DNA of 63,510 nucleotides, the filler included, from Psammoneis japonica (Eukaryota), in NCBI GenBank assembly GCA_008632985.1. It is 3 parts of 3 records of this genome, joined end to end, with 100 filler letters (N's around TTAATTAATTAA, not from the genome) between each part and the next. Parts side by side here need not be neighbours in the genome. Positions count along the whole stretch, not along the records: positions 1 to 29,554 come from QPGO01000405.1; positions 29,655 to 58,341 come from QPGO01000404.1; positions 58,442 to 63,510 come from QPGO01000549.1. One strand, 5' to 3'. Position 1 is the stretch's first letter. Each line of letters opens with the position of its first letter. A model generated the notes under the pieces. It worked only from the letters and a program-made list of their open reading frames with translations. It searched no databases and was not told the DNA's origin. Made by a program: the position numbers and the translations under genes. Shown one piece after another: positions 181 to 62,047 of this stretch.

Positions 181-2331
181 GTGCAGTCCTGCAGCTGAGT
201 AGGATGGACAAGACCTCGGAGGTTGGCAGCAATGTGAGTGGCGACAGAGGCAAACAGACGCTTGTTGAAAGTCATTGTCTGGAAATTGTGACGAATGTCG
301 TTGCTTCTGTTTGAATCGATTTTGTGATGAGCTAATTATTTCGAAGAGAAAATCTGAGTCTGGGTTGCAGTCGTGAGATGCGACCAGAATGACGTTGAGT
401 CGTGACTCTCCCTCTCAACCGAGAGAGCTTGCCAGCCCACAAGAGCCTTTCTGGCTGTGCGGAACGCATCGGTCCGCAGTCCCTTCGTGAACTGATCGGC
501 TGGTTGCTCTAGAGTGCTGACAGGTTGGATGTCGATCTCCAATTGTTCGACTTTAGTCCTAAACCAGTGGCACGGGACACCGATGTGTTTGGTTCGCGGA
601 GACAACTTGGGCACACGTGCGAACTTGAGGCACGCGGAGTTATCTTCGTACACAACGGACGCAGGCAGGACATTCTGCTCTACAGGCGAGTCATCGGTGC
701 CTTGGGTTGCGAGCTCAAAAGCCTTGGAGTGAGTCGTGACAGGGTTTTGGCGGTCAGACTTTCCGAATGCGTGGTGGTTGAGCTCCTTGAGAACTTCACG
801 AACAGGGATGAGATCGCGCACAGCTTGAGAAAGTGCGACATGTTCCACTTCCACAGTCGACAGTGCTGCAAGAGTCTGCAGCTTGGACACCCAGATGAGC
901 GGGCAGCCGGCGCAGTAGATGAGGCATCCAGTCCTGGACTTGACAGAAACTGGGTCTTGACCATCTTCCACACCAAATGACCCCGCGAAGTCAGAATCGA
1001 TGTAACAATCAACTCGATGATCTTGCACAGGCTTGAGAATGAGACCTTCAGTGGCAGTTGCTTTGAGGTGTTGGAGCATCCGCTTCACTGCAGCAGCGTG
1101 GGACGCTCGGGGCGCAAACGAGAATCGAGCTACTTGATGTGTGGCATGTGCAATGTCTGGCCGGCTGTTCGCTGCCAAGTGCATCAACATTCCAACAACT
1201 GAGCGATAATCGCAGGGTTCATCAAAAGGCAGGCCGTCCGTGTCGGCACCAACAGCCGCAGGTAGAGCTGGAGCAGATGCTCCATTGCAATCCTGCATCT
1301 GTGCGGCACGTAGGACCTTGTCAATTAGACCGGGTTGAGTGAGTAGAAATCGACCCTCGGAGAGCTTTTCGATCTTGACACCGAGAAAGTTGCCGACTTC
1401 TCCTTCGTCTCTAAGTTCAAATGCGTGGCGATGTTCGTCGTCGGAGACTCCTGACTTGCGAATTTCGGCTTCTAGAGCTTCAGCTGAAGCTCCAGCAAAA
1501 ACGGTGTCGTCAACGTGCACCACACACATCATGCCCCATTTGAAATACAAACAGGGATCTATGGCTGAAGGCACCCATCCGCGCTCGGTTAAACCAGCTC
1601 GCAACTTCTCGCAGAAGCCCTTGGGAGACTGTTTTAGGCCGTGCAGTCCTTTCAAAAGTTTGAGAACCATGTTGAGTCCCGACCTTGGCGCAAATCCCTT
1701 CGGCGGTGTCATGTGAACTTCCTCGGCGATGTCAGCTTGGCAAAAGGCTGTGGCACAGTCCACCTGTTGTGCAGTCCATCCCTCCTTTAATGCCGTAGTG
1801 AGCATGAGTCGGACACTGGACCATTGCACAACCGGCGCGCAGGTTTCGAAGCAGTCGACTCCTTCTTTCTGCAAATCACCGCGGATGCAGCATCGGGCCT
1901 TGTGCTTGAGAGGGGTTCCATCTGGGAGTCTCTTGAGCTTCAGTGCCCATGTGCCTGGAAGTACATTCACACGCAGCTGACGCTCGACTGCTTTCCAGGC
2001 TCGACGATGCATGAGTGCGTTGACTTCAATTTTCATCGCCTCAATCCATTCGTTGGCGTCCGGACCTTTCAGAGCATTGTGTGACGAAGGCACATCAGGG
2101 TCCTTGGTTTTCTTGCTAGCTGCGTAGGCTCGTGGATCGCCGATGTTGATGGCACCACTGTCCAAATCCGTCTCGAGAGTCGCCAGATACGCCAGTTGAG
2201 CCTTGTGTCCGATCGGCAGCGGCATTTCCTTGACGGAGCTGAAGCAGACCTCATCTACAAACTTGGCAGAGTTGAACTGTCCCTTGGTTGACCGTGAAGA
2301 CCGTCGCAGCCCTGGTGCTCCCTCTGGATTC
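181..2331 (-). mobile_element. Ty1/Copia LTR retrotransposon A, 5'-truncated: RT, RNase H, PPT and part of the 3' LTR
   Basis: ORF 336-2540 has KARxxxRGDLQ, QVD..TAF, LxGLKQSP, VHVDD (YVDD), SRPDIA, YIDSDFAG, RTKHI and ADQFTKGL. A purine tract GAGAGGGAGAG at 416-406 follows the RNase H end. Many conserved Tyr are Cys/His. Confidence 0.93.
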
Positions 2332-3343
2332 GCATGTGTTGTGCACAGCATCATCACACAGCATTCACCCAACTCTCCCTCTCGTCGCAGGATGGGTTGT
2401 CGCCATGTGGCGCATCCGCACGGCGGACTTACGAAATTTTGACCATGCACTCCCTCTGTTAGGCAGGCGGATGGGTTAGCGCCATGTGGCACATCCGGCC
2501 AATGCCAAGGGAGGAGTGGGTTCGAAGCCCAACCGCCCACCCCGGATGGGGTTGGAAAGGGGCAGGCCGAGAAAGAAAAGGAGGCTTGGATTTGAGGCCG
2601 ACTCGAACCAGCGACCTCAGGAAGCGTAAAGACTCACAACCACTCAGAATGCTGTACACTACCTGACGAGCACGGGAGGTTCTCAACAACCCAAGAGGCA
2701 AAGAAGTTGCCACTCGGCTGGTTGTTGAGTCCCTTCTCCGCACACACATTTAGGCATGTGTTGTGCACAGCATCATCACACAGCATTCATCCAACTCTCC
2801 CTCTCGTCGCAGGATGGGGTGTCGCCTTGGGGCGCATCCGCACGGCGGACTTACAAATTTTGACCATGCACTCCCTCTGATGGGCAGGCGGATGGGTTGG
2901 CGCCATGTGGCGCATCCGGCCAATGCCAAGGGAGGAGTGGGTTCGAAGCCCAACCGCCCACCCCGGATGGGGTTGGAAAGGGGCAGGCCGAGAAAGAAAA
3001 GGAGGCTTGGATTTGAGGCCGACTCGAACCAGCGACCTCAGGAAGCGCAAAGACTCACAACCACTCAGAACACTGTACACCGCCTGACGAGTGCGGGAGG
3101 TTCTCAACAACCCAAGAGGCAAAGAAATTGCCACTCGGCCAATTGTTGAGTCCCTTCTCCGCACACACATTTGGGCATGTGTTGTGCACAGCATCATCAC
3201 ACAGCATTCACCCAACTCTCCCTCTCGTCGCAGGATGGGTTGTCACCATGTGGCGCATCCGCACGGCGGACTTATGAAATTTTGACCATGCACTCCCTCT
3301 GTTGGGCAGGCGGATGGGTTAGCGCCATGTGGCGCATCCGGCC
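2332..3343. repeat. Tandem array of a 421-422-bp unit (~2.4 copies)
   Basis: gcatgtgttgtgcacagcatc recurs at 2332, 2754 and 3175 with high identity. Confidence 0.95.
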
Positions 3344-3921
3344 AGTTGGACAAATGCTGTGTGATGATGCTGTGCACAACACATGCCTAAATGTGTGTGC
3401 GGAGAAGGGACTCAACAATTAGCCGAGTGGCAATTTCTTTGCCTCTTGGGTTGTTGAGAACCTCCCGCACTCGTTGGGCAGTGTACAGCATTCTGAGTGG
3501 TTGTGAGTCTTTGCGCTTCCTGAGGTCGCTGGTTCGAGTCGGCCTCAAATCCAAGCCTCCTTTTCTTTCTCGGCCTGCCCCTTTCCAACCCCATCCGGGG
3601 TGGGCGGTTGGGCTTCGAACCCACTCCTCCCTTGGCATTGGCCGGATGCGCCACATGGCGCCAACCCATCCGCCTGCCCAACAGAGGGAGTGCATGGTCA
3701 AAATTTCGTAAGTCCGCTGTGCGGATGCGCCACATGGCGACAACCCATCCTGCGACGAGAGGGAGAGTTGGATAAATGCTGTGTGATGATGCTGTGCACA
3801 ACACATGCCTAAATGTGTGTGCGGAGAAGGGACCCAACAATTGGCCGAGTGGCAATTTCTTTGCCTCTTGGGTTGTTGAGAACCTCCTGCACTCATTGGG
3901 CAGTGTGCAGCATTCTGAGTG
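3344..3921. repeat. Inverted ~1.4 copies of the same unit, forming a long inverted repeat with 2641-3217
   Basis: 3344-3921 is the reverse complement of ~2641-3217; spacer ~126 bp. Confidence 0.92.
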
Positions 3922-4330
3922 CAACTCAACACGCGAACAAGAGTTCGAAGTCACAGCACTGAACATCAAACATTGACATCAAGTCTCACAGCATTCTTTG
4001 TTGTTGTCGTTGTTGACTTGCCTGCAATCGGTGAGTGTTGCTCTTTCGCCTTCCCTTCTTGTTTTCCTTGCGTCTTGCATCCTCACTCATTGTCTCACGT
4101 CTCGTGCCTTGCTTGTAGCAACGTTGGGAGAAGCTCTTTGTCAAGCAACAAAATCAAAGGACTTCGTTTGAAACGTCGGCTTTCCAAATCCAAATCGCCG
4201 CGAAAAACCGTTGGCCTGCTTGAAAAAGGCGACAATTGCTTTGCATCACTGTTGTGTTCATTCGCACTTCTCCCCATCAAGTCTCCCTCTCACATGCAAG
4301 CTTCGTTTTCTTATCCAACTCTTGTGCAGC

Positions 4331-7300
4331 TGCTGGAAGCGGCTCGAATTGAATGTGCCGAGATTCACGGCACCATCATCATCGGATGAAGATTCGCCGT
4401 CGGCAAATCCTCTCTACGAAAAACTGACTCTTGATTCGCACATATCTAAAAGGAGGAGGGGAAAACGAGACAAGGATCGGAATTGGTCTAAGCGACGGAA
4501 GTTATCTGATGAAGCGAACAAAGCTCCAAAGTGTCATTCAAACGGGGTGAGGAATCACCAAAGAGAGCTCGACTCGAAACGGTCTTCAGAGCCCCTCCGC
4601 GCCCGCCAAAGCTCGCGTGAGACGGGCCGCGCTGAAACTATCCAATACCAAGAATATCTGACGTGGACGGAGATTGATAAAAGCCTAGGGCCTATTCTCG
4701 GGAATGCGACACTTCAACGACCCTACTTGGTTAGGAGGCCGATTGGATTGTCGGAAGAAGAAACGAAAGCTCTGACCATGACTCGAGTTTGCAACGATTT
4801 CAAACCATTTCAAGGGCCCAGTAATGAAATTCGAAAACGAAATCAAGGTAAGCGACACGCATTTCATTTTGTTGCCAGCGCGATCACGACACTTTCTTCT
4901 CATCGACTTCATCTCTTTCTTTTGAATTTAGAAATAGCGAAGGCACCTTCTGCCTGGCATTATTTTGTCAACGATACGAAACCGGCAGTCACTCCCAAGC
5001 AAACTTCGAGCAATACTATGGAATCGAGCAGAGCTCTAGAGGCAAACGGATTATCGTCTGACACGAAAGCCGGGAGTGCCGTTGTCTTGGACGCGTCTGG
5101 TGTTGTGAATCAGCGTGATACCAGCCCAGCTAGATTCAAGACGCAAGGGGGCACTGGAGGCCGCCCGGTGCTTGTCAATAGCACGAATCATCAAAGCCTT
5201 CGCCGCGCTTCCTCTGGCAACCATTCAACTCGGACAAGGACATTTTCTTCTGCAGCCACTCCACCCAAGAAGAAAACGCATCGGCCACTCTATCCCATTC
5301 CGGGTGTTTGCGAGACGAACGAAAAGGAAAACCAAGAAGCTGAACAAAACAAAGTCAACTGCATTTCGTCCAAAGCTCCGCCCAACAGAGGTGTCAGGTC
5401 TACCAGCCGCAGTAAAGCAAATTCCGCATCACTTGATAGAGTACGCACTGCGTCGACAGTGGATGCTGGCCTCGACAAATCCAGCTCCAAACGGAGTGGT
5501 CCTTCCGCAAAAGCGACACCTGCCACAAATGAAAACGTCTTTGCAGCCACCGCAGATTCAATGTTAGGTGCAAATAAGAGTCCTGAAAACAGTGGTTTGT
5601 CAGGGCACACTGTTTCAAATGTTCGCGGTAAGACATTGGTTTGATTTGTTTGCATCTTGTGTTTTTTCTTTACCCAATGCTCATTCTTGTCAATTTTTGT
5701 CTTGAATCTGCTATCCTTTAGTAGATGGCGCATCTATCAACACCCGGGCTGCTACGACAGTGGAAGTTGTCGCCAATGGATCAACATCAGGGAGGACACA
5801 ACTCAAGTTGCCAGTGGATCCGAAGTGCGAAGTGGGAAATCTCCTTCTGCCACTTTTTTGATTGGTGCAACCATGGGTATAGGAAGCACGCCCACTGCTG
5901 ATGGACAAGAACGGGACGCCCTCAAGAAGACATCCGCTTCACCGCGTCAGTTTCCTGTTGCCCACAACAAGGAAGGGCCAACCAAACATTTCATACCTCC
6001 TTTTTCCCATTACAATGCAGAGCCAACCGAAGATACGGCAAACGACTACGACCACACGGGGAAAAATCTTATAAGAAATGACAGTTCCATGTCTCGATTG
6101 AGTGTGTACGATGCAGATTCGTTCGAGGTGAAGGGAGAAGAAGAAGCAAATAAAGAAGTCGTTGATAGCACCGTTATAGCCGCATCAGTCACACGAGTGT
6201 GCAATCTTGCCTCTGGAGTACCCCAAGTTGCGAACGGAACTGATGAGATGACCAACTTACAGGGACCATGTTCGGCNAAGAAGCCGCGACCAGTTCAAGG
6301 TAAGAAAATCGACTCGCTTTTTGTTGCTGCCTGTGCGAATTGATTGTTGTTGCCACGACCTCCTTCATACCTTGCCAGTGCCTTCTCCTTTGTTTCAAAT
6401 AGACGCAGACAATGGATCTTCTTGCGACAATAAAGGGCTGCTTGTTATCTCCCATGAAGAGGGAGAGGAGCAGGCCAAGGCACCCACGCCTTTCGCGAAA
6501 GCCGGCGACCGTGAATCTAGTGGATTAGGTACCTGTAGCTCGTTCATTGGAGGAGCGTCCGACGGGTGTGGCCTTGCTTCGAAGGCACCCGCTAGAACGA
6601 CTAAGAACGTTACCTCCGATGGGTCAATGGATCCAACCAGCAAATTCTCAGACATTTCTTCGAAAGAATCAGTTTTTACCCTGGATTCGGAAATGCCGAA
6701 GGGCAAGAGCAGTGAATGTTGTCCACAAAATGAAACCGCTGTGACCGTCACGGACTCATTACCAACGCAAGACCCGAGCGAGGAATGGAACGAAGAAGTC
6801 GATGACCGCTGCAAGCCCAACACCAAAGATTCTGCCATTTCAGAATCAGCGATACAAGTGCACAGTGTTGCCTCTAGATCGTCACAAGCTGCAAACATAT
6901 CCGATGCAATGGCCTCCTTGAACGGAGAAAGTCCCGCAAGAAAACGCAATCGAATTATAGGTAAGAGAATATCTCGTGTTGTTGCTACTTGCACGACCGT
7001 AATTGTTGTTGACGCAATCTGCTGCAAATCAGTTTCAGATCATTTGCTGAATACAGACATAGGCAATGAATCTTCTGGTGACGATAAATCGCAGCGGTTT
7101 CTCTATGACTCTGATGAAGAAGAGGAAGGAGAAGTCAATGCGCCCGGATACTGCACGACAGTTGGCGACCGCGGAGCTAGCACTGTGGGCTACTCTGCCG
7201 CCGAGGCAGGAGCCTCCAATGTCTCTACTGAGGATACCGAAACAGCTACAATTGGTGACTTGAGCGGCGTACGCTTGGAGGATCCGTCTGCTACTGCGAC

Positions 7301-8234
7301 CGGGGACTCTGAGGTAGTTGCTCCTGTCAAGGAAACTGCCAAACCGTCGAGAAAAGAACGTGTGAACAGAAGAAATAACGCGGTTGTGGGTGCTAGAATT
7401 ATGCCCCTAGCCGAGGCTAAAGAACACGGATTTTGTTACGACAAAAGGCGCGTGCCGGTCGGATATTGCATTCCGGACACTTCATTTCGTATTCTGAAGC
7501 GCATGATTCCGGACAAAAAGGAGAGAGCGAAACAAGATATTTCTAAGCTGGCGATTCGAAACGAATTAGCTCCAAGACGCGAATGGGTATCGGCCAAGAA
7601 ATTCATACCGTTTTTTGAGAGTAAAGGATTCGAAGCGCAAAAGTTACGCCACAACGAAAACCAAAGTAAACTGGAATTGCTTCTAAAAGGAGAGGGCGTG
7701 TATCTTGTGATCATTGATTTTTGGGACGAGGTTGGCAGGAAAGTCAAACACGCAGTGGCATATTTTGCAGAGAATGGCGTCCTTATGGACACTCAGCCTC
7801 GTCTTACCTATGTCAAGCTTGATGAAAGGGATCGGGAGTTGTTGAATCGCCGAGACGACAACGCGAAACAGACAGCCAGAGAGATCTTTTGGACGTTATT
7901 TGATCAGCGAAATATCATCGACAGCATATTCAAGATCACAAGGAAAGTGGATCCGACAGCGGCATTAAGTCAAAAAGATAAGGAAGACACTTCTTCAGAT
8001 ACCAACAAGGTTGTAAGACAAGTGGAACCGACCGTGGGAGCAAGTCCAATGGAGGAGGACGACACAGCTTCATATGTACTCAAGAGACAAGAACCCTTAG
8101 ATGAACAACAAGAACGGATAAAACAAAACAGGAGACAGAGACGCGCAAGAAACAAAAAGAGAAGGAAAGAGGCCAAACAGGCGAAGAGGGAGGAAGAAAA
8201 GAGGCTCTCAGAAATGGCTGCTTCGACCGAATAG
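4331..8234 (+). CDS. Multi-exon host gene, 5' end unresolved: large Ser/Thr/acidic low-complexity protein with a C-terminal globular domain and a basic tail
   Basis: GT..AG introns inferred at 4848-4931, 5628-5721 (or 5724), 6300-6402 and 6961-7056. The 6300-6402 intron joins ORF 5657-6343 to ORF 6321-8234 in phase. One apparent 1-nt frameshift in the G run near 5790. TA/Tyr content is normal; stop TAG at 8232-8234. Confidence 0.7.
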
Positions 8235-9923
8235 ATGTGTTCGAATCCTACGACTATTGCAACGACACCGTTTTCACTACACAAGAAAATAAATTGGAAA
8301 GTATAAATTATACCGGTATTTTGACTAGCTAGCTCTAGCTAGAGAAGAATCTAGAGCAACAGGAGGAGCAAAGCAGCGCCATCTTTTTGCTGGTCGGACG
8401 TCGTAGTTGAGCAAACCACTGTACGGTACCGTAGCTAAAAGCGGGCACCACAAAATAGCCAATTTAGATCACAAAAATGACATCACGAGAAGGCGTTGCG
8501 TGCAAAATTGAATGCGTGTAAGTAGAGCGCCATTATTTTTGGGAAAGTATCTATTCTGAAACGAGAAAAGATTTGAGCTATAAGTACAGTTTGTGAGCAT
8601 AGCTGCGTACGAGTGAAAACCTTACGAAACAACAAGCGAACACCCAGAACAGCAAACCACTTGCTTTGGTTGAAATCTATCTCCCCCCTTGTTCAATAAT
8701 ATCATTCGTACCTTCGCTCTGTTTGTGTTAGCCTCCTTAGTATGGCCGGCTGAGAACAAATGTAAATGGAATCGGCAAAGGTCAAGTGACTGGCCACGTC
8801 CCACGTCTTTCAACGCTCTGTTCCTCCTCACCGTCCTCACGACAACTGACAGCAAAAGAACCAACTTGGCATTCTTATTTCCACAAACACAACGATGAAC
8901 TCCAGTCTCCACCCTGGTCTTGATAACCCTTCACGAAACATGGTGGATAGACAATGTGTAGTCTCGTTGCAACGTCCGCCACGGAAATATTGTGAGTTCA
9001 AGCGTCCAAGACGAATTCACCACGACAACTCTAGCCATCTACAGCACCGCATTGCCCATGGAGCAGACCAGACTAGACATTAACACCAATTTGATGGTCG
9101 TTGTCACAATATACTGTCGGCTGTCGGCACGACGAGTGTCATTATTTTTGCACGCTAGTTGCCATTGCCAGCCCGGCAACATCATATCATTGTGGGAATA
9201 GAAACGAAAAGGCAAAAATTTTGATTCAAGAGCGTGAGGCTGAATTCCGCATAGCACGCGAAACGAAGTGCAGTGGGTGTACGAAAGCTAATGAAGGTTT
9301 GGAGCAAACGATTACTTGCTCAAGGTCACCATCGTCGGCGGTTGGCGACAGGCGACATGGAGGCAGGCGACAGGCGACCCAGCCAGCAGCCAGCCATTTT
9401 CAGAGCTTCGAAATCGAGTGGCTTCCGGCTTCCAGATCCGAGTCAGCGGGCTCTTTGAAAACTAATACTTATGTATATATTCTAGAGCAACATAATTTAT
9501 ATTTCATTAAATATGATAGATACGAAAAGTAAATTTACATTTAAACATCTACATATCTTATTTCATCAGTGATCCTGTGCTATGTTCTCTTCTGTACATA
9601 CAGTGCTGAATAAGTTTCGCAGCGCATCGCTGTTTCTCTTTTTTCGGCGAGCGAGCCAGTTTTCAAAAACCAAAACTGAAACTGCTCAGAACTTCGCCAA
9701 CACAATGATAGGCGGCGATATCCGTGCGATTGTAGTTGTCGACAATGGACAATCCATCAAGCTGTCCTGCTCCGAGTGAAGCTCCAAACAGAACACCGAG
9801 TACAAGCCCTGCTCCCAGCTTGGAGCACAGTGCTCTAACGCCAATGCCTTTCCATCCACCGAGAGCGAGTCCCGCTCAGAATGATGTACAGACTCACACG
9901 ACACGACACGACACGACAACCGA

Positions 9924-10567: not shown

Positions 10568-10640
10568 CCTAAAACTACCCCGATCCAATGGCTCCGTCAA
10601 CCCTGGGGCCCAAAAAAGTATCTACACTTTATCCTACATC

Positions 10641-12168: not shown

Positions 12169-12449
12169 GTGGTGCCATTGACAAGCTGATCAGATGTCCT
12201 GCAATTGACACCTGGCAATGCCCATTACCTTGATTGTCCGCAAAGCCAAGGGATGTGCTTTTTCAGGAGCCTTCTGCAGTGTCTTCAATCAGCCCATCAG
12301 CTGTCCCGAGTTGACCACCCAGTGAGGTCCTGTCAATTTGCCTTTTGGCCTTGGCCAAGTGATGTGCCTCATTTTCTGTGGTGTGTTCTTGGCACCCAGC
12401 AACATCCCATGGACTGGAGGAGTCCATCTGCTCTGTCAAGTGCTGTGCT

Positions 12450-26110: not shown

Positions 26111-26639
26111 GGCCATGGAAAGCTTAGAGAGCTCATTTTGGTGTGCAAGTGCAACCCCATGTGGGCTCCATGCATGCATGCGCCATGCACAATTCTGTGA
26201 TGCACCATGCAGACATCATGAAGAGACATGAGGAGTGAAGATGCTGCACTCTACAATGGTGCAACAGCAGAGGCCACCATTTGAAGTTCCCACCACTTCA
26301 TGGCAACTGCAGCATTGTCTCTGCATGACAATGTCCCACAAGTGTGCATGTGCTGCCATCAGAGTGTTTGGACCACATGCTGAGACTTGTTTTGTGGCAA
26401 TTGAAAAAGCAGATGTTGCCAACATGGAAGTTGTTTTTAGGCAGGGTGCCCCATGGATTCAAAGCACAATCTCTGCCAGTCTTCCAAAATGACCAAATCA
26501 TGCATCAGGACCATCTGAAGATCAACGCTTGCTTGGCAGTTCTGAGGCACTCATGGGGGTGGTGCAGCAGCCAAGCTCACAAACCACCATTTAATGTGCA
26601 CCTTGGCAGTGTGCCAATGACAGGAACATTGTGCTGCCC

Positions 26640-27400: not shown

Positions 27401-27419
27401 CAAGAAAAATGTGATGTGG

Positions 27420-49665: not shown

Positions 49666-49679
49666 CTGCATGGGTCACT

Positions 49680-52325: not shown

Positions 52326-54827
52326 CCTGTGTATGTACTAGGCGCTGAAAAGAAGATGTGTTACGACTTTGTCGTTGTGAAAATTATGAGCTAGTTTAGA
52401 GTAGAGAAAGTGGGATCGTGCGAATAGGGAATCTTGCCAAATCCCCATTCGTTCGCATTGGGATCGTATCAAATCGATCGTGCGTTCGCATTGTGGATCG
52501 TGCAAATCAAGCCATCACGCGCCATGCACGAGTGATGTCATCGTGTGGAATCACACTGCCATCGTGGGCCAGACGACAGGCTAGTGTGCTTCACACGGAT
52601 GCTCTCTTAGCATCCTTCTGGAATTGCCTGAGACCTAGAGCCACGCCCTCCTGTGGTCGTGCTTCCCAGGTACGCATTAACAACACTACGTTGCCACGTA
52701 CAAGAGGCTTATGCACGGTCTCGCCATGTTGTCCAGTGGTGAGGCACACTGCACACTCCCCCATGATCAGGGCCGTTAAGTGACAGGATGTCTTACTGGT
52801 GACAGGGTGCAATCTGCCGTAGATTGTACGTGTCTGTCAGCGCTCCGTTCTGGATACGCAACGTGCCATTGTCATATACACGGACAACTCTGGCGGGTCC
52901 TGCATAGCTGTCAGAACCGCATTTAGAGGATTGTTCCTGTTTGATAAGTGCCAATTGCCCTACGGTATATTGGTGCTCCTTGCATTTCTGATTTTCACGC
53001 TTGTTATTTAAGTGGACAAGCTTCTGTTTTCTGGTTTCTATGTACTTCCACTTAGCACGATGGGCAATAGATAAAACCGCATCGCGTCCGAAGACCAATT
53101 GCATGGGACTTGCACGCGTGGTCGTATGTGCCGTAGCTCTAATGGGCGAAGGCTACTGTGGAGAGGATGCCACTCCATGGGTCATCTTCATCCAGTTCCA
53201 TGTCCTGCACTGAAAAGGAACGTACCATGTTACCAAGTGTCTGGGGCACACGTTCCACTATGGCATTCGCCTGTGGATTCCGTTTACTTATGGGTTTCTT
53301 CAAAATCCCATAGTCATTTTTAATCATCTGGCTAAATTCTGCCATAAATTCTGTCCCACGGTCATAAACCACCTGGGTTGGCCACGGATGTCTGCACAGC
53401 CACGTTTGTTCCACGACGTTTGCTACGACGTCTGCGCGTTTCGTAGACACTTCTTTAATCTCGAACCACCCCGGTTGCTGGGTCAATCATTGTGACTGCC
53501 CATAATTGCAAAGTGTCCTTTCCGCGTCTTTGAATTTTATATGGCCCTATCATGTCTGTGCATGGAGTCTCCCATGGAATTATCTCGGCGACCTTTTCTG
53601 GTGGCTTCCCATAACGCTGCGTTCGGCGTTTTGTCTTCTGGCATCGATCGCACTTAACGCACGTAGAATGCACCGTAGACCTCATACTAGGCCAGTAGAA
53701 GTGCTGGGCAATAGATATTTCCGTACGTGTCTCACCTGGATGACACAGTGTCTCGTGGTGCCATTCAGTTAGCGGGATCTGCAATGACTGTGGTACTGCG
53801 ATTTTGTCCTTATGACAGATTAACTGTTGTGATGACCCTCCCCCACGATACGCGCAAATGGAGTAGTCGGACGAGTCCTTAGCTCGTGAGAGTAGGCGCT
53901 TGTCCTTTTGTTGTGCTTTTTGAATGTGCTTGAAGCTAACAGGCAGAGATGCATCGTCTTGCGCGTCTGCATTAAAGGCTTCATGTAAAGGATGACTCGA
54001 TGGAGTGTCTTTTACATCCGGATTGGCCTCAGAAGGCAAGCTGGGTGCTAGCCGAAGGCGACTAAGAGCGTCAGCGACTAGGTTGTGGGTGCCCTTAACA
54101 TAGCGTAATTCGGGACCGTATTCTTCGCATGCCAACCGCCAGCGCATAACGCGCTCGGTATTGAATACTTTGTACGTAAGATTTTTATGATCAGCACATA
54201 TAATTATACGATGACCAAGGAGAATCGTTTGAAATTCTTTCAACGTCTCCACAATGGCGAGTAATTCTCTCTCCGTTGTTGTATAATTTAATTGCGCACT
54301 GTTAAGCTTTCTGCTATAAAAGGCGATAGGTTTATTATCTTGGGACACAACTGCTCCCAATTGACATTTAGAGGCATCGGCATGTATCTCAAAGGGTTTA
54401 TTAAAATCAGGATGTGACAATAAAACATCATCCGATATCACCCGTTTAATGGTTTCGAACGCCTCGTCTTCGACGGACGTCCACTCCCACTTAACAGTCT
54501 CACTTACGAGTCGTGTTAGCGGAGCCAAGACTTCAGAACATCTAATCCATGTGTCACGGTAGTAGTTCACCATACCAATAAATGACCGTAGGTCGCGTTT
54601 ATTGGTTGGGGTCGTGATTCGCTTAATGGCGTCGACTTTATTGGGTGTTGGTCGTATTCCGTCTCTGTTGACCAGGTAACCCAAGTATTCTAATTGGGTT
54701 TGACAGAAGTGAGATTTAGTTGCGTTAACTTTTAGTCCTGCTTTCTGGACCCTCAATAAAACTTCTTCAAGTTTGTTGAGGTGATCTTCATGGGTGCCTT
54801 TCGTCATGACGAGAAGGTCATCTAAGT
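52325..54827 (-). mobile_element. Gypsy 3' half (RT end, RNase H, INT, PPT, LTR 52755-52325), duplicate 1
   Basis: DASK.QLGAV, FYSRKLN, ERELLAIVE, HPG..HFYWP, YDRGTEF and NPQANAIVER; PPT GGGGGAG at 52762-52756. Confidence 0.95.
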
Positions 54828-57800
54828 GCCCTATGTATGTGCCAGGCGCTGAAAAAGAAGATGTGTTACGACTTTGTCGTTGTGAAAATTATGAGCTAGT
54901 TTAGAGTAGAGAAAATGGGATCGTGTGAATAGGGAATCTTGCCAAATCCCTATTCGTTCGCATTTGGATCGTATTAAATCGATCGTGCGTTCGCATTGTG
55001 GATCGTGCGAATCAAGCCATCACGCGCCATGCACGAGTGATGTCATCGTGTGGAATCACGCTACCATCGTGGGCCAGACGATGGGCTAGTGTGCTTCACA
55101 CGGATGCTCTCTTAGCATCCTTCTGGAATTGCCCAAGACCTAGAGCCACGCCCTCCTGTGGTCGTGCTTCCCAGGTACGTGTAAACAACACCACGTTGCC
55201 ACGTACAAGAGGCTTATGCACGGTCTCGCTGTGTTGTCCAGTAGCGAGGCATGCTGCACACTCCCCCATGATCAGGGCCGTTAAGTGACAGGATGTCTTA
55301 CTGGTGACAGGGTACAATCTGTCGTAGATTGTACGCATCTATCAGCGCTCCGTTCTGGACACGCAACATGCTGTTGTCATATACACGGACAACTCTGGCG
55401 GGTCCTGCATAGCTGTCAGAACCGTATTTAGAGGATTGTTCCTGTTTGACAAGTGCCAATTGCCCTACAGTGTGTTGACACTCCTTGCGTTTCTGATTTT
55501 CATGCTTGTTGTTTAAGTGGACAAGCTTCTGCTTTCTGGTTTCTATATACTTCCACTTAGCACGATGGGCAATAGATAAAACTGCATCGCGTCCGAAGAC
55601 CAATTGCATGGGACTTGCACGCGTGGTCGTATGTACCGTAGCTCTAATAGCGAAGGCTACTGCGGAGAGGATGCCACTCCATGGGTCATCTTCGTCCAGT
55701 TCCACATCCTGCACTGAAAAGGAACGTACCATGTTACCAAGTGTCTGGTGTGCACGTTCCACTATGGCATTCACCTGTGGATTCCGTTTACTTATGGGTT
55801 TCTTCAAAATCCCATAGTCATTTTTAATCATCTGGCTAAATTCTGCCATAAATTCTGTCCCACGGTCATAAACCACCTGGGTTGGCCACGGACATCTGCA
55901 CAGCCACGTTTGTTCCACGAAGTTTGCTACGACGTCTGCGCGTTTCGTAGACACTTCTTTAATCTCGAACCACCCGGTTGCTGGGTCAATCATTGTGACT
56001 GCCCATAATTGCAAAGTGTCCTTTCCGCGTCTTTGAATTTTATATGGCCCCATCACATCTATGCATGGAGTCTCCCATGGAATTATCTCTGCAACCTTTT
56101 CTGGTAGCTTCCCATAACGCTGCGTTCGGCGTTTTGTCTTCTGGCATCGATCGCACTTAACGCACGTAGAATGCACCGTAGACCTCACACTAGGCCAATA
56201 GAAGTGCTGGGCAATAGATATTTCCGTACGTGTCTCACCTGGATGACACAGTGTCTCGTGGCACCATTCAGTTAGCGGAACCTGCAATGACTGTGGCACT
56301 ACGATTTTGTCCTTATGACAGATTAACTGTCGTGATGACCCTCCCCCACGATACGCGCGAATGGAGTAGTCGGACGAGTCCTTAGCTCGTGAGAGTAGGT
56401 GCTTGTCCTTTTGTTGTGCTTTTTGAATGTGCTTGAAGCTAACAGGCAGAGATGTCTCATCTTGCGCGTCTGCATTAAAAGCTTCATGCAAAGGATGACT
56501 CGATGGAGTGTCTTTTACATCCGGATTGGCCTCGGAAGGCAAACTGGGTGCTAGTCGAAGGCGACTAAGAGCGTCAGCGACTAGGTTATGGGTGCCCTTA
56601 ACATAGCGTAATTCGGGACCGCATTCTTCGCATATTAACCGCCAGCGCATAACGCGCTCGGCATTGAATGCTTTGTACGTAAAGATTTTTATGATCAGCA
56701 CATATAATTATACGATGACCAAGGAGAATCGTTCGAAATTCTTTCAACGTCTCCACAATGGCGAGCAATTCTCTCTCCGTTGTTGCATAATTTAATTGCG
56801 CACTATTGAGCTTTCTGCTGTAAAAGGCGATAGGTTTATTATTTTGGGATGTGACTGCTCCCAATTGATATTTAGAGGCATCGGTATGTATCTCAAAGGG
56901 TTTATTAAAATCAGGATGTGACAATAAAACATCATCCGATATCACCCGTTTAACGGTTTCGAACGCCTCGTCTTCAACGGACGTCCACTCCCACTTAACA
57001 GTCTCGCTTACGAGTCGTGTTAGCGGAGCCAAGACTTCAGAACGTCTAATCCACGTGTCGCGGTAGTAGTTCACCATACCAATAAATGACCGTAGGTCGC
57101 GTTTATTGGTTGGGGTCGCGATTCGCTTAATGGCGTCGACTTTATTAGGCATTGGTCGTATTCCGTCTCTGTTAACCAGATAACCCAAGTGTTCTAATTG
57201 GGTTTGACAGAAGTGAGATTTAGTTGCGTTAACTTTTAGTCCTGCTTTCTGGACCCTCAATAGAACTTCTTCAAGTTTGTTGAGGTGATCTTCACAGGTG
57301 CCTTTCGTCACGACGAGAAGGTCATCTAAGTACGTTCGAACGAACGAACGATAGATCTTCAAATAAGCCTGACATGCGTTCTTGGAAAATGTCTGGCGAA
57401 TTACATAATCCCATGGGCAACACCTGCATCTCATGCTTGCCCCACGGGAAGATGAGCGTGCAGAGCTTCTTGCTGTCAGTGTCCAATCGGATATGACAAT
57501 GGCCCATGTTTAAATCCAGCGATGTAGCCCACATAAAGCCTTCGAGCTTAAGTAGCACATCTTGGAGATGAGGAATCGGATAAGGCAATCGCTTGATCCG
57601 TTTATTCAGCTCTCTCAAATCATTAAATAAAGCGTACCGTTAAATCTTTCTTCGGTATGATAAATGATGGAGCTGCCCATTGGGATCGGTTAACGCGTTT
57701 GAGAACACCGATACGTGCTAGGCGTTCTACTTCTTTACGTAGCGTAGCTTCGTATGCACGAGGTGCTTTACACGGACGAGCGTGGTGTGGTTCTACACCC

Positions 57801-58441: not shown

Positions 58442-60570
58442 GACAAAGAATTGCTGCAAGTTGGCATTGGCCTTGTTTGCGCCTTGCAGAACAATGACGG
58501 AACTCAAACCAACAACCCATGCATGCCTGTGAATTCCAACTCTCCGCAGGCCGGTGTCATTGCAGAGGAAAACTTGAACTTCTTGCAGAACCTGCAGGAT
58601 GCCAAGTCCAACTGCCTTCGTCTCAAAAGCATCTGACGATCTGCAAAGAAAGACGGAGCAATTTAGACCTGCTGACGTTGCGTTTGACTGTTGCGAAAGT
58701 GACGAGGAAGAAGGTCTTTCAGGCGCCGTTCAGGGTCAACTGCTGGATGCACTCTTGGAAGAAATGGCAGAGCAGCCAGAAGACGATGACATTGGGTTGA
58801 GCGACCAAGCAGTTGTTCCTGCGCATTTGAGCGGCAAACGTGCAAGACAGAAAGGTTCACACATGGGTGGTTGCAAATGCTTGGCAGACATGCACACTGA
58901 CCCACCAAACGAGGAAAGCCAGGTCAATGAACGACAACTTTTTGAGAATCTAGAGGGCGGCGATGACACCGACGAGGAAGACCAGAATGAAGGAGTGCAA
59001 CAACACATCCACAGCAGACCACTGTCAAGAGACGACATTGTTCGAGTGACTGACTAGAACGCAAAGAACAAGAAGGTCGTTTGAGGACATGACAGGTTTG
59101 GAAGAACACGTCGATGTACGTCAAGCAAACGGATCTGCAGCAAGTCGTAGACTGGGCTAGGAAAGCAAGACTGGATGGGCAACAGCAGCGTGCCTTTGAA
59201 ATTCTAGCAGGAACCTTTGTGCTCACTTGCTGCAAAGACGCTCTTCAAGACGAGACGTCACGCAATGGACTTAACAGGAGAAACAGCAGACACGAATTCG
59301 CAACAAACCTTCGCCGATTGAAGAAACTCGTGGAAGTGCAAAGACGCAGAACGTTGCAACTTGTGTGTTTTTTACATGGTGCAGGTGGAAGTGGCAAATC
59401 AACCACAATGGACCTCGTCGTGGAATGCGGAAGAGAGCATTGCTCGCTTGTTGAGCAGCCGTTCACAACAAGCACAATCAGAGTGACTGCACTGACCGGA
59501 GTGGCTGCCACTGTTCTCAAAGGGGACACAATCCACCGAGTTGCATGCCTCATGAGAAGAAAGCAAACAACCGAAGAGCAAATTGAAGCATGGTCAGACA
59601 CGAGACTTTTGGTGGCAGACGATTTCTTTTGCAAGCAAGAGAGAACTAGAAAAACTCCATGAGAATTTAACAGTGTTGAAGAGCGAATTGAGCAAGCCGT
59701 GCGGTGGCATGAACATTGTTTTCGCAGGTGACCTCAGGCAACTAGAACCAGTCGGAAAAGGAGTGAAACCACTGTACAAAGATGCATGTCCCGAGTTTCA
59801 CGAGTGGATCAACTGCTGCACAGAACTTCGTGGTGCGCGCAGGTTCAAAGACGATCCATCATGGGGAAAACTGCTCAAGAGATTCCGCACTGGTGAGATT
59901 GCAGTTGACGATGTAGAGCACATCAACGAACGAGCAGTTCAGAATGAAGATGATCTGCCCAGTGACCTCCGCCATGCCACGTGCGCAAATAAGGACAGAG
60001 ATGCAATTGACACTGGCCCATTCGAAAAAAGAGTAAAAACACTGCATGGAAGAGATGGAGACGTCCTTGACTCAATGTTGATTTTCAGTGACGACTTGCA
60101 GGTGCAGAATGGCACGAGACTCTGCCAACCATTTCCGGTTTGCAACAGCTTCTGGAACAACTGTGGTGAAGGAGACGTTGTCATGCAATCAGGAAGAATG
60201 GATCCAGTCTTACGAATTTACAGAAGATGCAGAGTCATGACACCTTTCAACGAAAATGCAGCAAACGGTCAAGCAAACGGAACGCAAGCCACTGTTGACA
60301 AGGTCGTTCTCAAACCAGGACAGGAACCAAGACTGGTGACTTTAGACAACAACATTGGCATTCCTGCTGCTTGCCAGTCAGGTAGACCACGTTGCATTGG
60401 AACACTGCAACAAAAGCATCGACCCCGCGAAGTTTTTAGTTGAGCCAAAAACAAATGCTTTCAGGGCTTGCATCGCCAAGCCCAGCCCAATTTTAGAAGA
60501 AGGCGACAAACAAAGGCACACTTTCCAACTGAAGGCAACCCAGCTGCCGTTTGTCATCAACAATGCCACT
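58442..60570 (+). pseudogene. PIF1-family SF1B helicase, probably Helitron-like, frameshifted near 59625
   Basis: FLHGAGGSGKST, VTALTGVAAT..GDTIH, LLVADD(IS), GGMNIVFAGDLRQLEPV, RRFKDD, ANGQANGT and QLPFVINNAT. The Rep/HUH domain is not visible. Confidence 0.85.
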
Positions 60571-61240
60571 NNNNNNNNNNNNNNNNNNNNNNNNNNNNNN
60601 NNNNNNNNNNNNNNNNNNNNNNNNNNNNNNNNNNNNNNNNNNNNNNNNNNNNNNNNNNNNNNNNNNNNNNNNNNNNNNNNNNNNNNNNNNNNNNNNNNNN
60701 NNNNNNNNNNNNNNNNNNNNNNNNNNNNNNNNNNNNNNNNNNNNNNNNNNNNNNNNNNNNNNNNNNNNNNNNNNNNNNNNNNNNNNNNNNNNNNNNNNNN
60801 NNNNNNNNNNNNNNNNNNNNNNNNNNNNNNNNNNNNNNNNNNNNNNNNNNNNNNNNNNNNNNNNNNNNNNNNNNNNNNNNNNNNNNNNNNNNNNNNNNNN
60901 NNNNNNNNNNNNNNNNNNNNNNNNNNNNNNNNNNNNNNNNNNNNNNNNNNNNNNNNNNNNNNNNNNNNNNNNNNNNNNNNNNNNNNNNNNNNNNNNNNNN
61001 NNNNNNNNNNNNNNNNNNNNNNNNNNNNNNNNNNNNNNNNNNNNNNNNNNNNNNNNNNNNNNNNNNNNNNNNNNNNNNNNNNNNNNNNNNNNNNNNNNNN
61101 NNNNNNNNNNNNNNNNNNNNNNNNNNNNNNNNNNNNNNNNNNNNNNNNNNNNNNNNNNNNNNNNNNNNNNNNNNNNNNNNNNNNNNNNNNNNNNNNNNNN
61201 NNNNNNNNNNNNNNNNNNNNNNNNNNNNNNNNNNNNNNNN
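60571..61240. other. Assembly gap (N run)
   Basis: Ns. Confidence 1.
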
Positions 61241-62047
61241 CAGTCATCATGTGGAAACAACGGTCGCCCAAGGATGATTCAACCATGGAGGAGCTAAAGG
61301 CAGCATGTGCAGCGGCGATTCCACAGCGGTCGGGGAGATTTTTCACCGAGGAGGAGATGGCGGAGCAGGAGAAGGAGCAAGCAAAGTCCCTTCAGAAGAA
61401 GCATGGCCAGAAAGAATGGAATTGAGCAAATTGCAAATGACCATTTAGCAAAGACAACAGCATCAATGTGCAAAATGCACACACATGGACTTTCACTTGA
61501 GCCGCCGCGGATTGAGTGTGGCCATGAATGAGGACCAACTGTTTGGCAAAGAAACTGCAACAATGCGCAAATTTCGCACATTTCCACACTCACTTAATCC
61601 AACGCAGCTTGCCTTGGACAACATCAACATGCACAACTAGACAACATCAACACACACAGACAGCCTCATGAAACCTCACAGAAGACAGAATGGTCAGAAG
61701 CAAAACAACCAGCACCACGCTCTAACGCATGTTGGTCATGTCGCGTGGGTCGCGCAAAAGTGCGCACCGAAATGACCGTCATGTGTTGTAATTAATTCGA
61801 ACGCCCGGCGCAAAATGCAGCAAAATGATTGGTGCAGGCAATCGTCATGGCTCTATTTTCTGACAGTAGCGAGGGCGGCAATCCAAAATCTTTCGGTTTC
61901 AGACTTCGATCTAGAGAGTTCCACCTAAAAAAGAGGAGGAACCAATTTGTTTCCCGCCATATCACGCGCAAGTGGATGATGATTCGCGCGGAGCCTCACA
62001 TCTCTCCACCCTCGCTCAGCCGCGCAAAGCCAGAAAATCAAACAACC

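Follow-up and report, generated by a model that had tools for sequence, protein, structure and literature searches.

What has removed the TA dinucleotide from so much of this diatom-like DNA, and does the same process act on all of it? The window, meaning the whole 63,510-nt stretch from Psammoneis japonica that was analysed, has a TA observed/expected ratio (o/e) of 0.37 and a TG/CA o/e of about 1.5. A first reading made from the letters alone (hereafter the sequence-only reading) had noticed this TpA depletion with TpG/CpA gain, and dinucleotide ratios for the whole window and in 500-bp bins bore it out: TA o/e is at or below 0.14 in 32 of the 35 bins from 11.5 to 29.5 kb and 0.24-0.26 in the other three. 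The losses are specific in dinucleotide and flank, symmetrical between the strands, independent of element class and bounded by a positional edge within a tandem array. We propose, with a probability of about 0.68, that two site-specific transition processes, one superimposed on the other, have altered mobile DNA in place, both ending in TpG/CpA and strongest in silenced or relic transposons.

Table 1. Features of the window, in window coordinates.
Feature	Position	Strand	Description
Copia A, rearranged repeat fragments and ~400 bp of flank	336..4400	-	pol ORF 339-2633; RVT_2, Pfam E=8.6e-35
Expressed spliced gene	4954..8316	+	3119-nt contig of run X2
330-bp tandem array	10637..12177		spans left edge of saturated domain; 5 units aligned
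Saturated domain	11550..29554		relic mobile DNA; TpA and CpG almost erased, TpG/CpA doubled
Degraded Gypsy fragment	25243..25933	-	blastn to 58240-57529, 68-71% identity; within saturated domain
Degraded Gypsy fragment	27422..28285	+	blastn to 55305-56235, 66-71% identity; within saturated domain
Copia B	29974..31704	-	RVT_2, Pfam E=1.5e-14
Two tandem 2.5-kb Gypsy pol copies	52323..57331	-	Pfam RVT_1, RNase H, integrase; 94.9% alike
Helitron-type (RepHel/PIF1) helicase remnant	58442..61500	+	Pfam PIF1, AAA_30; ORFs 59093-59659, 59556-60440
Cu/Zn-SOD-like host gene	62048..62620	+	Pfam Sod_Cu; two exons

The effect is most complete in the saturated domain, where, over 17,387 nt, 75 TA were observed and 1169 expected, with 116 CG for an expected 1006, while TG reached 1992 (1062 expected) and CA 2089 (1108 expected). 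The combined TA and CG deficit of 1984 is thus nearly balanced by a TG and CA excess of 1911. Across 12-30 kb, AA stayed at an o/e of 1.03-1.29 in every 2-kb bin but the one at 16 kb, which N's distort, and ORFs of the domain gave no Pfam matches. The loss of CpG between 11.5 and 29.5 kb (CG o/e ~0.1), as complete as that of TpA, is an observation that the first reading did not contain.

Comparison of the two degraded Gypsy fragments with their undepleted counterparts gives the direction of change. With both fragments pooled, 59 TA sites left none in place, 24 having become TG and 21 CA, and 60 CG sites likewise left none (25 TG, 22 CA), showing that TA and CG were lost to TG/CA. It is very improbable that such a pattern is a technical artefact of miscalls at modified bases or of assembly and polishing errors. 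Runs X1-X3 share a single sample, which may also have supplied the assembly, and the assembly does differ from X1 at some TA/CG sites. However, the separately built X1 contigs, at a depth of ~175, match the domain at ~99% and reproduce its TA/CG-free sequence (2 differences in 441 nt, 5 in 932 nt and 1 in 586 nt); the loss is region-specific and ends at element junctions, with normal TA and CG in the neighbouring Gypsy; and retention of 0/59 and 0/60 lies far beyond any miscall rate known to us.

The 330-bp tandem array shows what sets the rate. In 200-bp counts the left edge of the saturated domain falls at ~11.55 kb for TA and ~11.8 kb for CG. When unit u1 was taken as ancestor, 23 TA sites in u2-u4 gave 8 kept, 8 TG, 6 CA and 1 CG, and all 8 TA were kept when the comparison was reversed, indicating that TA was lost and never gained. 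The 41 CG sites gave 24 kept, 12 CA and 5 TG. The units descend from a common ancestor, and TA and CG were lost only on the domain side of ~11.55 kb, implying that the rate is set by position and not by retrotransposition. The edges at 29.55 and 58.4 kb are sharp and fall where elements adjoin or N's begin; insertion age may be a cause of their sharpness.

These results bear on a rival account, in which TpA and methyl-CpG are hypermutable genome-wide without targeting, genes retain TA and CG by selection, old relics decay furthest and no defence is involved. TA- and CG-type changes do dominate every compartment in which they could be tested, including an undepleted array at 9.9-10.6 kb (11 of 14 between-unit differences) and the region 3989-9443, where they account for 17 of the 22 differences between assembly and X1 contigs among those listed (40 of 307 rows). 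Depletion also tracks apparent age, with TA o/e falling from ~0.8-1.0 in young Gypsy to ~0.25 in Copia A and ~0.05 in relics. Nevertheless, we consider this account unlikely. Array units of equal age have lost TA and CG only past ~11.55 kb, and the stretch at 8.0-11.4 kb, with CG at ~1, keeps a TA o/e of 0.58-0.84, which would be unexpected at equilibrium with a ~40-fold TA rate unless selection acted on the whole stretch. Among the same listed differences, 10 are TA-type, and in 9 of these the contig has TA and the window TG or CA, with 8 of the 9 window-side losses lying within the 550 bp at 3989-4533 that adjoin Copia A. In addition, a between-region rate contrast of ~1000-fold has been directly measured in the alga Bigelowiella natans (10.64898/2026.01.13.699255).

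The direction of change is also legible in proteins. The sequence-only reading had placed the signal in most recognisable transposon proteins, which holds for Copia A and the Helitron-type helicase but not for the intact Gypsy copies or Copia B. Each of the five Copia A peptides that it cited (KARCC, GVDCFETCAPV, LHGLKQ, VVHVDD and DIAHA) occurs when ORF 339-2633(-) is translated, and the TGG-CAA of the presumed stop was found at 429-431. Taking as conserved-Tyr columns those with Y in at least 70% of 60 Copia A homologues, we found Cys or His in 10 of 17 (4 C and 6 H, with 4 Y kept), as against 280 of 330 other conserved columns kept (Fisher p=1e-7 for Tyr versus others). Of the 63 conserved residues that changed, 26 are explained by a single TA step (16 TA>TG, 10 TA>CA). 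At 1-4 kb TpA o/e is 0.12-0.32 and CpG only mildly low (0.63-0.92). The helicase, whose homologues are ~1900 aa long and match at residues ~1500-1760, shows the pattern as well: of its five conserved Tyr columns, two retain Y, two have C and one has H, single TA steps account for 8 of 29 changed residues, Y content is 0.5-0.7%, and the zone at 58.5-61.5 kb has a TpA o/e of 0.07-0.23 with CpG at 0.53-0.90. Copia B is moderately TA-poor (o/e ~0.5-0.6) and has no Y>C/H in 11 conserved columns, a weak test in a distant lineage, so that Tyr loss throughout Copia was not upheld; nor was the pattern in LINEs, since Pfam found no LINE among 125 ORFs of at least 110 aa in the window.

In animals, A>G hypermutation of retroelements can arise via edited RNA, and Copia A is a retroelement. 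ADAR-like A-to-I editing of RNA, or error-prone reverse transcription, fixed by retrotransposition, is nonetheless already contradicted here and has next to no probability. The first reading had argued this from strand symmetry and independence from TE class. The signature is carried alike by Copia, by degraded Gypsy, by a DNA transposon of Helitron type and by the one-sided array at the domain edge; both strands are affected equally, and non-coding arrays are affected too; and AA is spared. The findings speak against two further candidates. Pol-eta-type WA>WG synthesis, suggested at the outset, is argued against by the sparing of AA, the strand symmetry and the spread over element classes, and repeat-induced point mutation (RIP) by TpA>TpG/CpA changes that are in place, strand-symmetric and spread across element classes with AA spared.

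It had further been claimed that the process acts on genomic DNA and is restricted to repeats. In-place TpA transitions stand; the restriction is not supported as worded, because TA-type changes also dominate the differences between young Gypsy copies, between units of the undepleted array and, among those listed, between assembly and contigs in or near the expressed gene. The two intact Gypsy copies (52.3-57.3 kb) show no visible depletion (TA o/e 0.75-0.99; Y 3.1-4.0%); within Gypsy, strong depletion is seen in the degraded fragments of the saturated domain. Yet the signature is present in the differences between these copies: 39 of 107 are TA<->TG/CA, 27 CG<->TG/CA and 17 TG<->CA doubles, the remainder being 12 transitions of other types, 5 transversions and 7 changes that are adjacent or of another kind. 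The host gene beside Copia A had been said to keep TA at 4.3-8.2 kb, which is true only in part: o/e falls to 0.18 at 4.0-4.5 kb and lies at 0.35-0.69 from there to 8 kb, the gene itself being only moderately low. This gene, in which some of the listed assembly-versus-contig differences lie, yielded no family in a Pfam search; the X2 contig lacks 5627-5720 and 6959-7030, both GT..AG introns. Contig depth over Copia A is 3000-9000 versus ~175, which suggests ~20-50 copies. Given that young Gypsy and the assembly-versus-contig differences carry the signature, the process looks recent or ongoing, and it may be graded and not confined to repeats, in a window that holds no clearly neutral single-copy DNA as control.

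The target site has a flank rule. Among the 75 TA that survive in the saturated zone, RTAY is absent (0/75; 24% expected, p=2e-9) and YTAR makes up 48 (26% expected). Among mixed sites, hits fell on the A with a Y after it 37 times versus 15 (p=0.003), and the base 3' of 100 hit adenines was C in 41, T in 29, G in 18 and A in 12. The hit adenine therefore prefers T-A-Y, and RTAY is the hottest site, wiped out in the saturated zone. Both strands are hit equally (TG 24 versus CA 21 in degraded Gypsy, 16 versus 10 in Copia A), the TG-CA variance is 1.0, and runs tests (z -0.1 to -0.9) revealed no strand-coordinated runs. Single-strand deaminases often leave such runs, and long-term saturation would erase them.

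The same site rule would also suit a different chemistry under the same targeting, in which the lesion at TpA is a putative modified base and not an enzymatically deaminated adenine. Thymine might be converted by a TET/JBP-type enzyme to 5-hydroxymethyl- or 5-formyluracil that mispairs with G, or an RTAY-reading methyltransferase might make N6-methyladenine that is later lost or miscopied. RTAY is a 4-bp palindrome and the strands are hit equally and independently, as by a duplex-reading enzyme; this would parallel the co-located decay of palindromic methyl-CpG, and base modifications of these types occur in other protists. On the other hand, the mixed-site asymmetry (37 versus 15) is a strand-specific reading of the flank, a deaminase fits equally well, and the mutagenicity of these bases is modest. 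We regard this chemistry as possible but doubtful.

In the mechanism that we favour, with adenine itself as the target, the first process would be a TpA-specific A:T>G:C hypermutation yielding TpG, or CpA via the other strand, which would read 5'-T-A-Y-3' on one strand and strike the palindrome RTAY hardest. The second would be ordinary CpG>TpG/CpA decay, as for methylated CpG. Both would peak in transposon DNA that is silenced or a relic, and in the sequence directly beside it, and saturation of both would leave DNA free of TA and CG with normal G+C and long false ORFs. The first process is probably the same kind of regulated, foreign-DNA-directed hypermutation as in B. natans. The genome defence put forward in the sequence-only reading would be a possible role. 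As the chemistry of the first process we infer enzymatic adenine deamination in duplex or transiently opened DNA, for which a TadA/ADAT2-like enzyme is a candidate.

Several known systems share parts of this pattern. ADAR and APOBEC in animals likewise aim deaminase-type transition hypermutation at parasitic nucleic acids. The substrate of ADAR is dsRNA, and a preceding A is among the favoured neighbours of its edited A, whereas AA is spared here; APOBEC changes C>U on single strands and leaves clusters that are strand-coordinated, whereas no strand coordination is seen here; and, unlike their action on retroelements and viruses, DNA transposon and array DNA are also affected. TadA and ADAT2 are tRNA adenosine-34 deaminases whose natural tRNA substrate has U before the edited A; the natural TadA site is U-A-C-G, and early TadA-derived DNA base editors preferred Y-A-C. 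The edited A after U/T and the C-rich 3' base counted above are a likeness in sequence preference only, and we know of no action of these enzymes on chromatin domains.

Methyl-CpG decay of silenced transposons resembles the CpG>TpG/CpA change at 11.5-29.5 kb, and DNA methylation has been described in a diatom, Phaeodactylum (PMC6604790). Such decay explains only about half of the TG/CA gain, cannot remove TpA and does not match the loss of TpA well ahead of CpG in Copia A and the Helitron zone. Fungal RIP also ruins repeated or mobile DNA by strand-symmetric, dinucleotide-specific DNA-level transitions in compositional domains with sharp bounds. Its direction is the opposite, changing C:G>T:A, mostly CpA>TpA, so that TpA is made and G+C lowered, whereas here TpA is destroyed and G+C unchanged; the likeness carries no claim of duplication dependence or of a premeiotic stage.

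The closest match is one for which the sequence-only reading knew of no description. For Bigelowiella natans, a 2026 preprint (Mettrop et al., bioRxiv 10.64898/2026.01.13.699255) reports TpA-only hypermutation of DNA that NCLDVs and virophages have integrated. Two such viral regions carried 231 mutations in mutation-accumulation lines, of which 230 were A>G/T>C, all on TpA; TpA-poor coding sequences were enriched in RT and DDE domains, and an ADAT2-like deaminase was proposed (10.64898/2026.01.13.699255). As that text describes it, TpA alone is hit there too, giving TpG or CpA by strand and localised to foreign or mobile DNA, with clustered TpA depletion and CpA and TpG gain as the long-term footprint. 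The differences from this text are several. The DNA hit here belongs to LTR retrotransposons, a Helitron-type element and relic repeats rather than giant-virus and virophage inserts; TA depletion (o/e ~0.05) is far deeper than the Rho of 0.45 given for the B. natans NCLDV region; and CpG is also erased and a T-A-Y/RTAY flank rule can be seen, whereas flanking context, CpG and diatoms all go unmentioned in the main text of the preprint. De novo rates were measured in B. natans, and here the process is known from sequence comparison. B. natans is a chlorarachniophyte (Rhizaria), while the best named relatives of the Cu/Zn-SOD-like gene are diatoms (Stramenopiles), and it is this one host gene, together with the relatives of Copia, that makes a diatom source probable. 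On this footing, the source looks like a second lineage with TpA-specific hypermutation, reported once before, in an unrelated alga.

A sequence-only reading of the window had called for TpA and CpG ratios to be plotted along it, and in 500-bp bins TA depletion indeed proved to be regional and not uniform. Over the whole window the observed/expected ratios (o/e) were 0.37 for TA, 0.65 for CG, 1.49 for TG and 1.53 for CA. At 11.5-29.5 kb, which corresponds to a domain of relic mobile DNA here called the saturated zone, TA o/e was at most 0.14 in 32 of the 35 bins, TG/CA o/e was ~2 and CG was also near-absent. A TA o/e of at most 0.24 was combined with a mean TG/CA of 1.63-2.24 in 34 of these bins, the TG/CA value being 1.49 in the bin at 24001. 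TA was likewise low in the retroelement Copia A and its flank (1-4.4 kb; TA o/e 0.12-0.32, CG 0.63-0.92) and in the PIF1/Helitron zone, which carries a helicase remnant (58.5-61.5 kb; TA 0.07-0.23, CG 0.53-0.90). The Gypsy block at 53.5-58 kb (TA 0.75-0.99, CG ~1) and the DNA at 8-11.4 kb (TA 0.58-0.84, CG ~1) had higher values. The near-complete loss of CpG is an addition to the sequence-only reading, which had left it out. In the saturated zone, counted over 17,387 unambiguous bases, the gain of 1911 TG and CA matches the loss of 1984 TA and CG, and it is because of this balance that the G+C content is unremarkable.

Dinucleotide counts in the saturated zone, observed and expected
Dinucleotide	Region	Observed	Expected
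TA	saturated zone	75	1169
CG	saturated zone	116	1006
TG	saturated zone	1992	1062
CA	saturated zone	2089	1108

Two further features of the composition profile were recorded. A pattern of 44 N, 12 bases and 44 N occupies both 29555-29654 and 58342-58441, each at a junction between strong and weaker depletion, and these stretches may represent masking, or scaffolding gaps where elements end. Between 45.8 and 50.7 kb, TA o/e falls to 0.04-0.18 in patches (46.0-46.5 and 47.0-48.5 kb) amid less depleted DNA. An ORF at 47473-48810 in this interval gave a weak Copia gag/integrase lead (ESM-Atlas, score 0.78) and the sequence at 49678-50050 shares 88% identity with Copia A at 458-823; the interval probably holds a second, broken Copia A-like copy.

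The direction of change was read from four comparisons: a degraded Gypsy element, a 330-bp tandem array, the Copia A pol and a Helitron-type ORF. When the degraded Gypsy pieces at 25243-25933 and 27422-28285 were aligned to the undepleted Gypsy at 52-58 kb, none of 59 TA sites was kept, 24 having become TG and 21 CA (45/59). None of 60 CG sites was kept either, 25 having become TG and 22 CA (47/60), which is the pattern that methyl-CpG decay would leave. Other dinucleotides were kept at 37-77%, and the mismatches comprised 53 A>G, 52 T>C, 46 G>A and 45 C>T. Pol-eta-type WA>WG synthesis, one of the candidates put forward in the sequence-only reading, requires A>G at both TA and AA; AA, however, is not depleted, and in this alignment 34 of 58 AA sites survive as against none of the 59 TA sites. 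This candidate therefore falls away.

The 330-bp array (10637-12177) spans the left edge of the saturated zone. Its units u0 and u1 and most of u2 are near-identical and retain TA and CG, both of which are lost from ~11.55 kb on. With u1 as reference, 8 of 23 TA sites were kept, 8 had become TG, 6 CA and 1 CG, so that TG or CA accounts for 14 of the 15 changed sites; among 41 CG sites, 24 were kept, 12 had become CA and 5 TG. In the reverse comparison, all TA still present in u2-u4 (8/8) were also TA in u1, and TA was therefore lost, not gained. Since the array units derive from one ancestor and have had equal time, the asymmetry reflects position, not age and not retrotransposition. Fungal RIP, a C:G>T:A change in duplicated DNA that creates TpA (CpA>TpA), acts in the opposite direction; its exclusion by the sequence-only reading is upheld by the shortfall of TA (75 against 1169 expected) and by the 8/8 result.

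The same signature was found at the protein level. The Copia A pol ORF (339-2633, minus strand; RVT_2) was aligned to 60 homologues at 49-60% identity, and its translation contains all five peptide strings that had been quoted for it. Across 17 conserved tyrosine columns it has 4 Tyr, 4 Cys and 6 His, compared with 280 of 330 other conserved residues kept (Fisher p=1e-7). Of its 63 changed conserved residues, 26 are explained by a single TA step (TA>TG 16, TA>CA 10) and 3 by a CG-type step, and where the preceding codon ends in T, the single-step changes also take the form of Thr>Ala, Met>Val and Ile>Val. The ORF at 59556-60440 encodes a Helitron-type RepHel protein that matches homologues of ~1900 aa at their residues ~1500-1760. 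Two of its five conserved tyrosine columns are kept, two are Cys and one is His, and single TA steps account for 8 of 29 changed residues. Tyrosine makes up 0.9% of Copia A and 0.5-0.7% of the Helitron ORFs, whereas the Copia homologues have 3.1% and the intact Gypsy ORFs 3.1-4.0%. Contigs of sequencing run X1 indicate tens of copies of Copia A. A near-palindrome of 1.3 kb (2641-3921) with arms ~90% alike lies downstream of its pol, and copies of a 165-590-bp unit were located at 1-178, 2332-2922, 2632-2809, 2754-3344, 3053-3230, 3344-3508 and 3753-3921; the repeat-unit copies in 1-3921 are rearranged LTR-like fragments.

The range of elements affected is narrower than in the sequence-only reading, which had included Copia, Gypsy and LINE sequences. 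The two intact Gypsy copies are not depleted, nor is a second Copia element (Copia B, 29974-31704, minus strand), and no LINE appeared in Pfam scans of 22 and 125 ORFs. In Copia B, 5 of 11 conserved tyrosine columns keep Tyr and none is Cys or His; only 62 of 208 conserved columns are kept overall, and this tyrosine test is unfair because the homologue set is too distant.

Neither strand is favoured, and the two are hit independently of each other. The ratio of TG to CA was 24:21 in the degraded Gypsy, 8:6 in the array and 16:10 in Copia A, and no strand-coordinated mutation runs were found (runs-test z -0.1 to -0.9; TG-CA variance 1.0 over 34 bins). ADAR-type editing fixed by retrotransposition would leave one strand changed per copy, would reach retroelements only and would make A>G changes after either A or U. 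The first two expectations are contradicted here by changes on both strands (24:21 and 16:10) and by the involvement of a Helitron-type element and a tandem array, as the sequence-only reading had argued, and the third by an AA o/e of 1.03-1.29 in undistorted bins. A technical artefact is the last of four alternatives that failed their tests, together with RIP, ADAR-type editing and Pol-eta synthesis.

We further examined the bases flanking the target. None of the 75 surviving TA in the saturated zone is RTAY (R, purine; Y, pyrimidine), compared with 24% of TA in undepleted DNA (p=2e-9), and 48 of the 75 are YTAR, against 26% expected. When each change was assigned to the strand whose A changed, the A with a 3' pyrimidine was hit 37 times versus 15 at mixed RTAR/YTAY sites (p=0.003), and the base 3' of the hit A in 100 polarised events was C in 41, T in 29, G in 18 and A in 12. 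In the young Gypsy pair (the two intact copies), the changed fraction was 18/60 for RTAY, 12/69 for YTAY, 5/62 for RTAR and 6/80 for YTAR (chi-square p=0.0008). By a rough estimate, the 17 TG<->CA doubles in this pair compare with ~2 if all sites were equal, and of the 14 clean doubles 9 are flanked by R..Y, for which the background is 25%; the excess is probably due to RTAY sites being hot. In Copia A and the Helitron zone the loss of TA has gone further than that of CG, and the left edges of the saturated zone differ (TA ~11.55 kb, CG ~11.8 kb); we therefore treat TA and CG loss as two processes. A single enzyme for both was set aside: the mutated base is 3' in TA but 5' in CG, and the unlike edges (~11.55 versus 11.8 kb) and unequal relative rates also count against it. 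Taken together, these results show that TpA is changed to TpG/CpA at the DNA level, in a position-dependent and strand-symmetric manner and preferentially at T-A-Y, and that CpG decay occurs as well. The signature (45/59 Gypsy TA sites, 14/15 changed array sites, 26/63 Copia A residue changes) is real and striking, and the sequence-only interpretation of it is largely correct.

TadA/ADAT2-like deaminases are known from tRNA and base-editor work to favour U/T before the target A and C/T after it. Adenine deamination by an enzyme of this kind would be compatible with the T-A-Y preference. A modification that reads the duplex, either 6mA or an oxidised thymine at RTAY, also fits as a route, and it accords with the palindromic hot site and with the strand independence. 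By whichever chemistry, we infer that the TpA process is probably a regulated hypermutation aimed at silenced mobile DNA, of the kind seen in the chlorarachniophyte Bigelowiella natans.

The process also appears in younger sequence. The Gypsy pair is 94.9% identical over 2501 aligned bases, and its 107 differences comprise 39 TA<->TG/CA, 27 CG<->TG/CA, 17 TG<->CA doubles, 12 other transitions, 5 transversions and 7 adjacent or other changes; a rough calculation from these counts has TA sites changing ~40 times faster than other sites. The pair lies in a 2.5-kb head-to-tail duplication of the pol region (52323-57331), with RT-RNaseH-integrase present twice, so that either the copies are nested or in tandem, or the assembler has joined two haplotypes or two paralogues. 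X1 contigs (depth ~175) match the saturated zone at ~99% identity; the runs derive from a single sample, which may also have been the source of the assembly. Of the 40 differences listed out of 307 that separate window and contigs, 22 fall at 3989-9443. Among these 22, the window has TG/CA where the contig has TA in 9 and the reverse in 1, with 7 CG-type and 5 other differences. Eight of the nine window-side TA losses listed lie at 3989-4533, beside Copia A, a clustering in keeping with a recent spread of the process out of the element and into its flank. The contigs covering 3989-4231 are short, however, and may come from paralogues.

On restriction to repeats, as originally claimed, the observations point both ways. 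Net TA depletion within the window is confined to transposon and relic DNA and ~400 bp of flank, but TA-type differences dominate elsewhere too. In the undepleted array at 9.9-10.6 kb, 11 of 14 between-unit differences are TA- or CG-type, which counts against strict targeting in a window without clearly neutral single-copy DNA. The host gene at 4.2-8.3 kb, said to keep its TA, is real and spliced, but its first 400 bp, beside Copia A, are TA-poor (o/e 0.18). At 4954-8316, a 3119-nt contig of run X2 is spliced over two GT..AG introns (5627-5720 and 6959-7030), and the protein matched no Pfam family. Run X2 is RNA-like, as judged from its spliced contigs, and leaves 10.0-20 kb almost uncovered. 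At a single N at 6277, the X2 contig has 21 other letters for ~100 assembly bases (6277-6376), which suggests a local assembly error.

The diatom affinity of the host rests on few genes, namely a SOD-like gene and a Copia A relative. On their evidence the window most likely belongs to a diatom rather than to Bigelowiella. Copia A has a single named relative, which comes from Fragilaria crotonensis. For exon 2 of the SOD-like gene (62.3-62.6 kb) no identical protein was found; its named relatives, at 59-75% identity, come from Asterionellopsis glacialis, Trieres, Stephanopyxis, 'Cosci...' (probably Coscinodiscus) and Ditylum, with Phaeodactylum, Mayamaea, Fistulifera and Epithemia bringing the diatoms to nine. 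Entomoneis (cluster of P0245) makes a tenth, and one xanthophyte, Tribonema, is also among the relatives. Active SODs carry metal-binding histidines in the exon 1 motif. The Cu/Zn-SOD-like gene here (62048-62620) reads GKHGITVNVYGD at that place, and its predicted product may be a non-catalytic SOD-like or chaperone-like protein.

DNA of this composition is a hazard for annotation. Since TpA and CpG loss in the same domains cancel in G+C, such domains escape GC-based scans. At 11600-29554, TAA/TAG occur at 2.0 and 1.6 per kb (both strands) versus 24.5 for TGA, and at 12.6-17.7 in the neighbouring Gypsy; ORFs of 110-240 aa are found in all six frames without a Pfam match. TA-free DNA lacking TAA/TAG thus yields long false ORFs in six frames, a trap for gene callers, and it hides transposon relics from homology searches, of which annotators should be warned.

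The sequence-only reading knew of no description of the TpA process, but there is a precedent in B. natans. In mutation-accumulation lines of that alga, 231 of 302 nuclear mutations fell in one integrated NCLDV and one virophage region, and 230 of these 231 were A>G or T>C, all on TpA, at a rate of ~6e-7 per site per generation in only some lines (Mettrop et al., bioRxiv 10.64898/2026.01.13.699255). The same preprint reports 124 TpA-poor, CpA+TpG-rich clusters in the genome and enrichment of RT and DDE domains in TpA-poor coding sequences, and proposes an ADAT2-like deaminase; its main text makes no mention of flanking context, CpG or diatoms. A full-text literature search for a description in diatoms or elsewhere returned none besides this preprint; a match in PMC4504042 was to the unrelated word 'Tpase'. 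In a mutation-accumulation study of Phaeodactylum tricornutum, mutation was biased towards GC>AT and the mutagenic contexts were CG, CC and TG; the available text of that report mentions no TpA effect (PMC6604790).

The 2026 preprint, on a single rhizarian alga, is the one earlier account of TpA-specific hypermutation, and the window provides a far more saturated second case. Coming from a probable diatom, it would indicate that the process is limited neither to one species nor to giant-virus inserts, and that it acts on ordinary transposons. It also narrows the target motif to T-A-Y, RTAY being the hottest form, which any candidate enzyme must reproduce, and it opens a comparative route to the gene in a group that is genetically tractable. 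There is roughly one chance in three that an ancient DNA-editing defence guided by chromatin, a 'reverse RIP', is common to diatoms and chlorarachniophytes. It would convert T-A-Y adenines in silenced transposons and integrated viruses, act alongside CpG methylation and reach a few hundred bases into neighbouring genes. In that case a comparison of SAR genomes that do and do not carry the TA-free footprint could reveal the enzyme, which would be a natural adenine editor acting sequence-specifically on double-stranded chromatin.

As in B. natans, substitutions in the window fall on TpA and yield TpG or CpA. Unlike the almost exclusively A:T>G:C changes of B. natans, the saturated zone shows an equally complete CpG>TpG/CpA, that is G:C>A:T, conversion, which we read as a second process on top and not as a different first process. 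A further trait of the B. natans system is that it acts on integrated foreign or mobile DNA, at rates far above those in the rest of the genome. In the window, net depletion is likewise limited to transposon and relic DNA and its near flank, and one domain edge lies inside a tandem array, but TA-type changes prevail among differences elsewhere too. High de novo rates, as in some B. natans lines, are hinted at indirectly by the Gypsy copies that have diverged by 5% and by the assembly-versus-contig differences. The window is best regarded as a new and deeper instance of the TpA hypermutation reported in a chlorarachniophyte, in a probable diatom and on ordinary transposons, and it adds information on the target motif and on a coupling with CpG loss.
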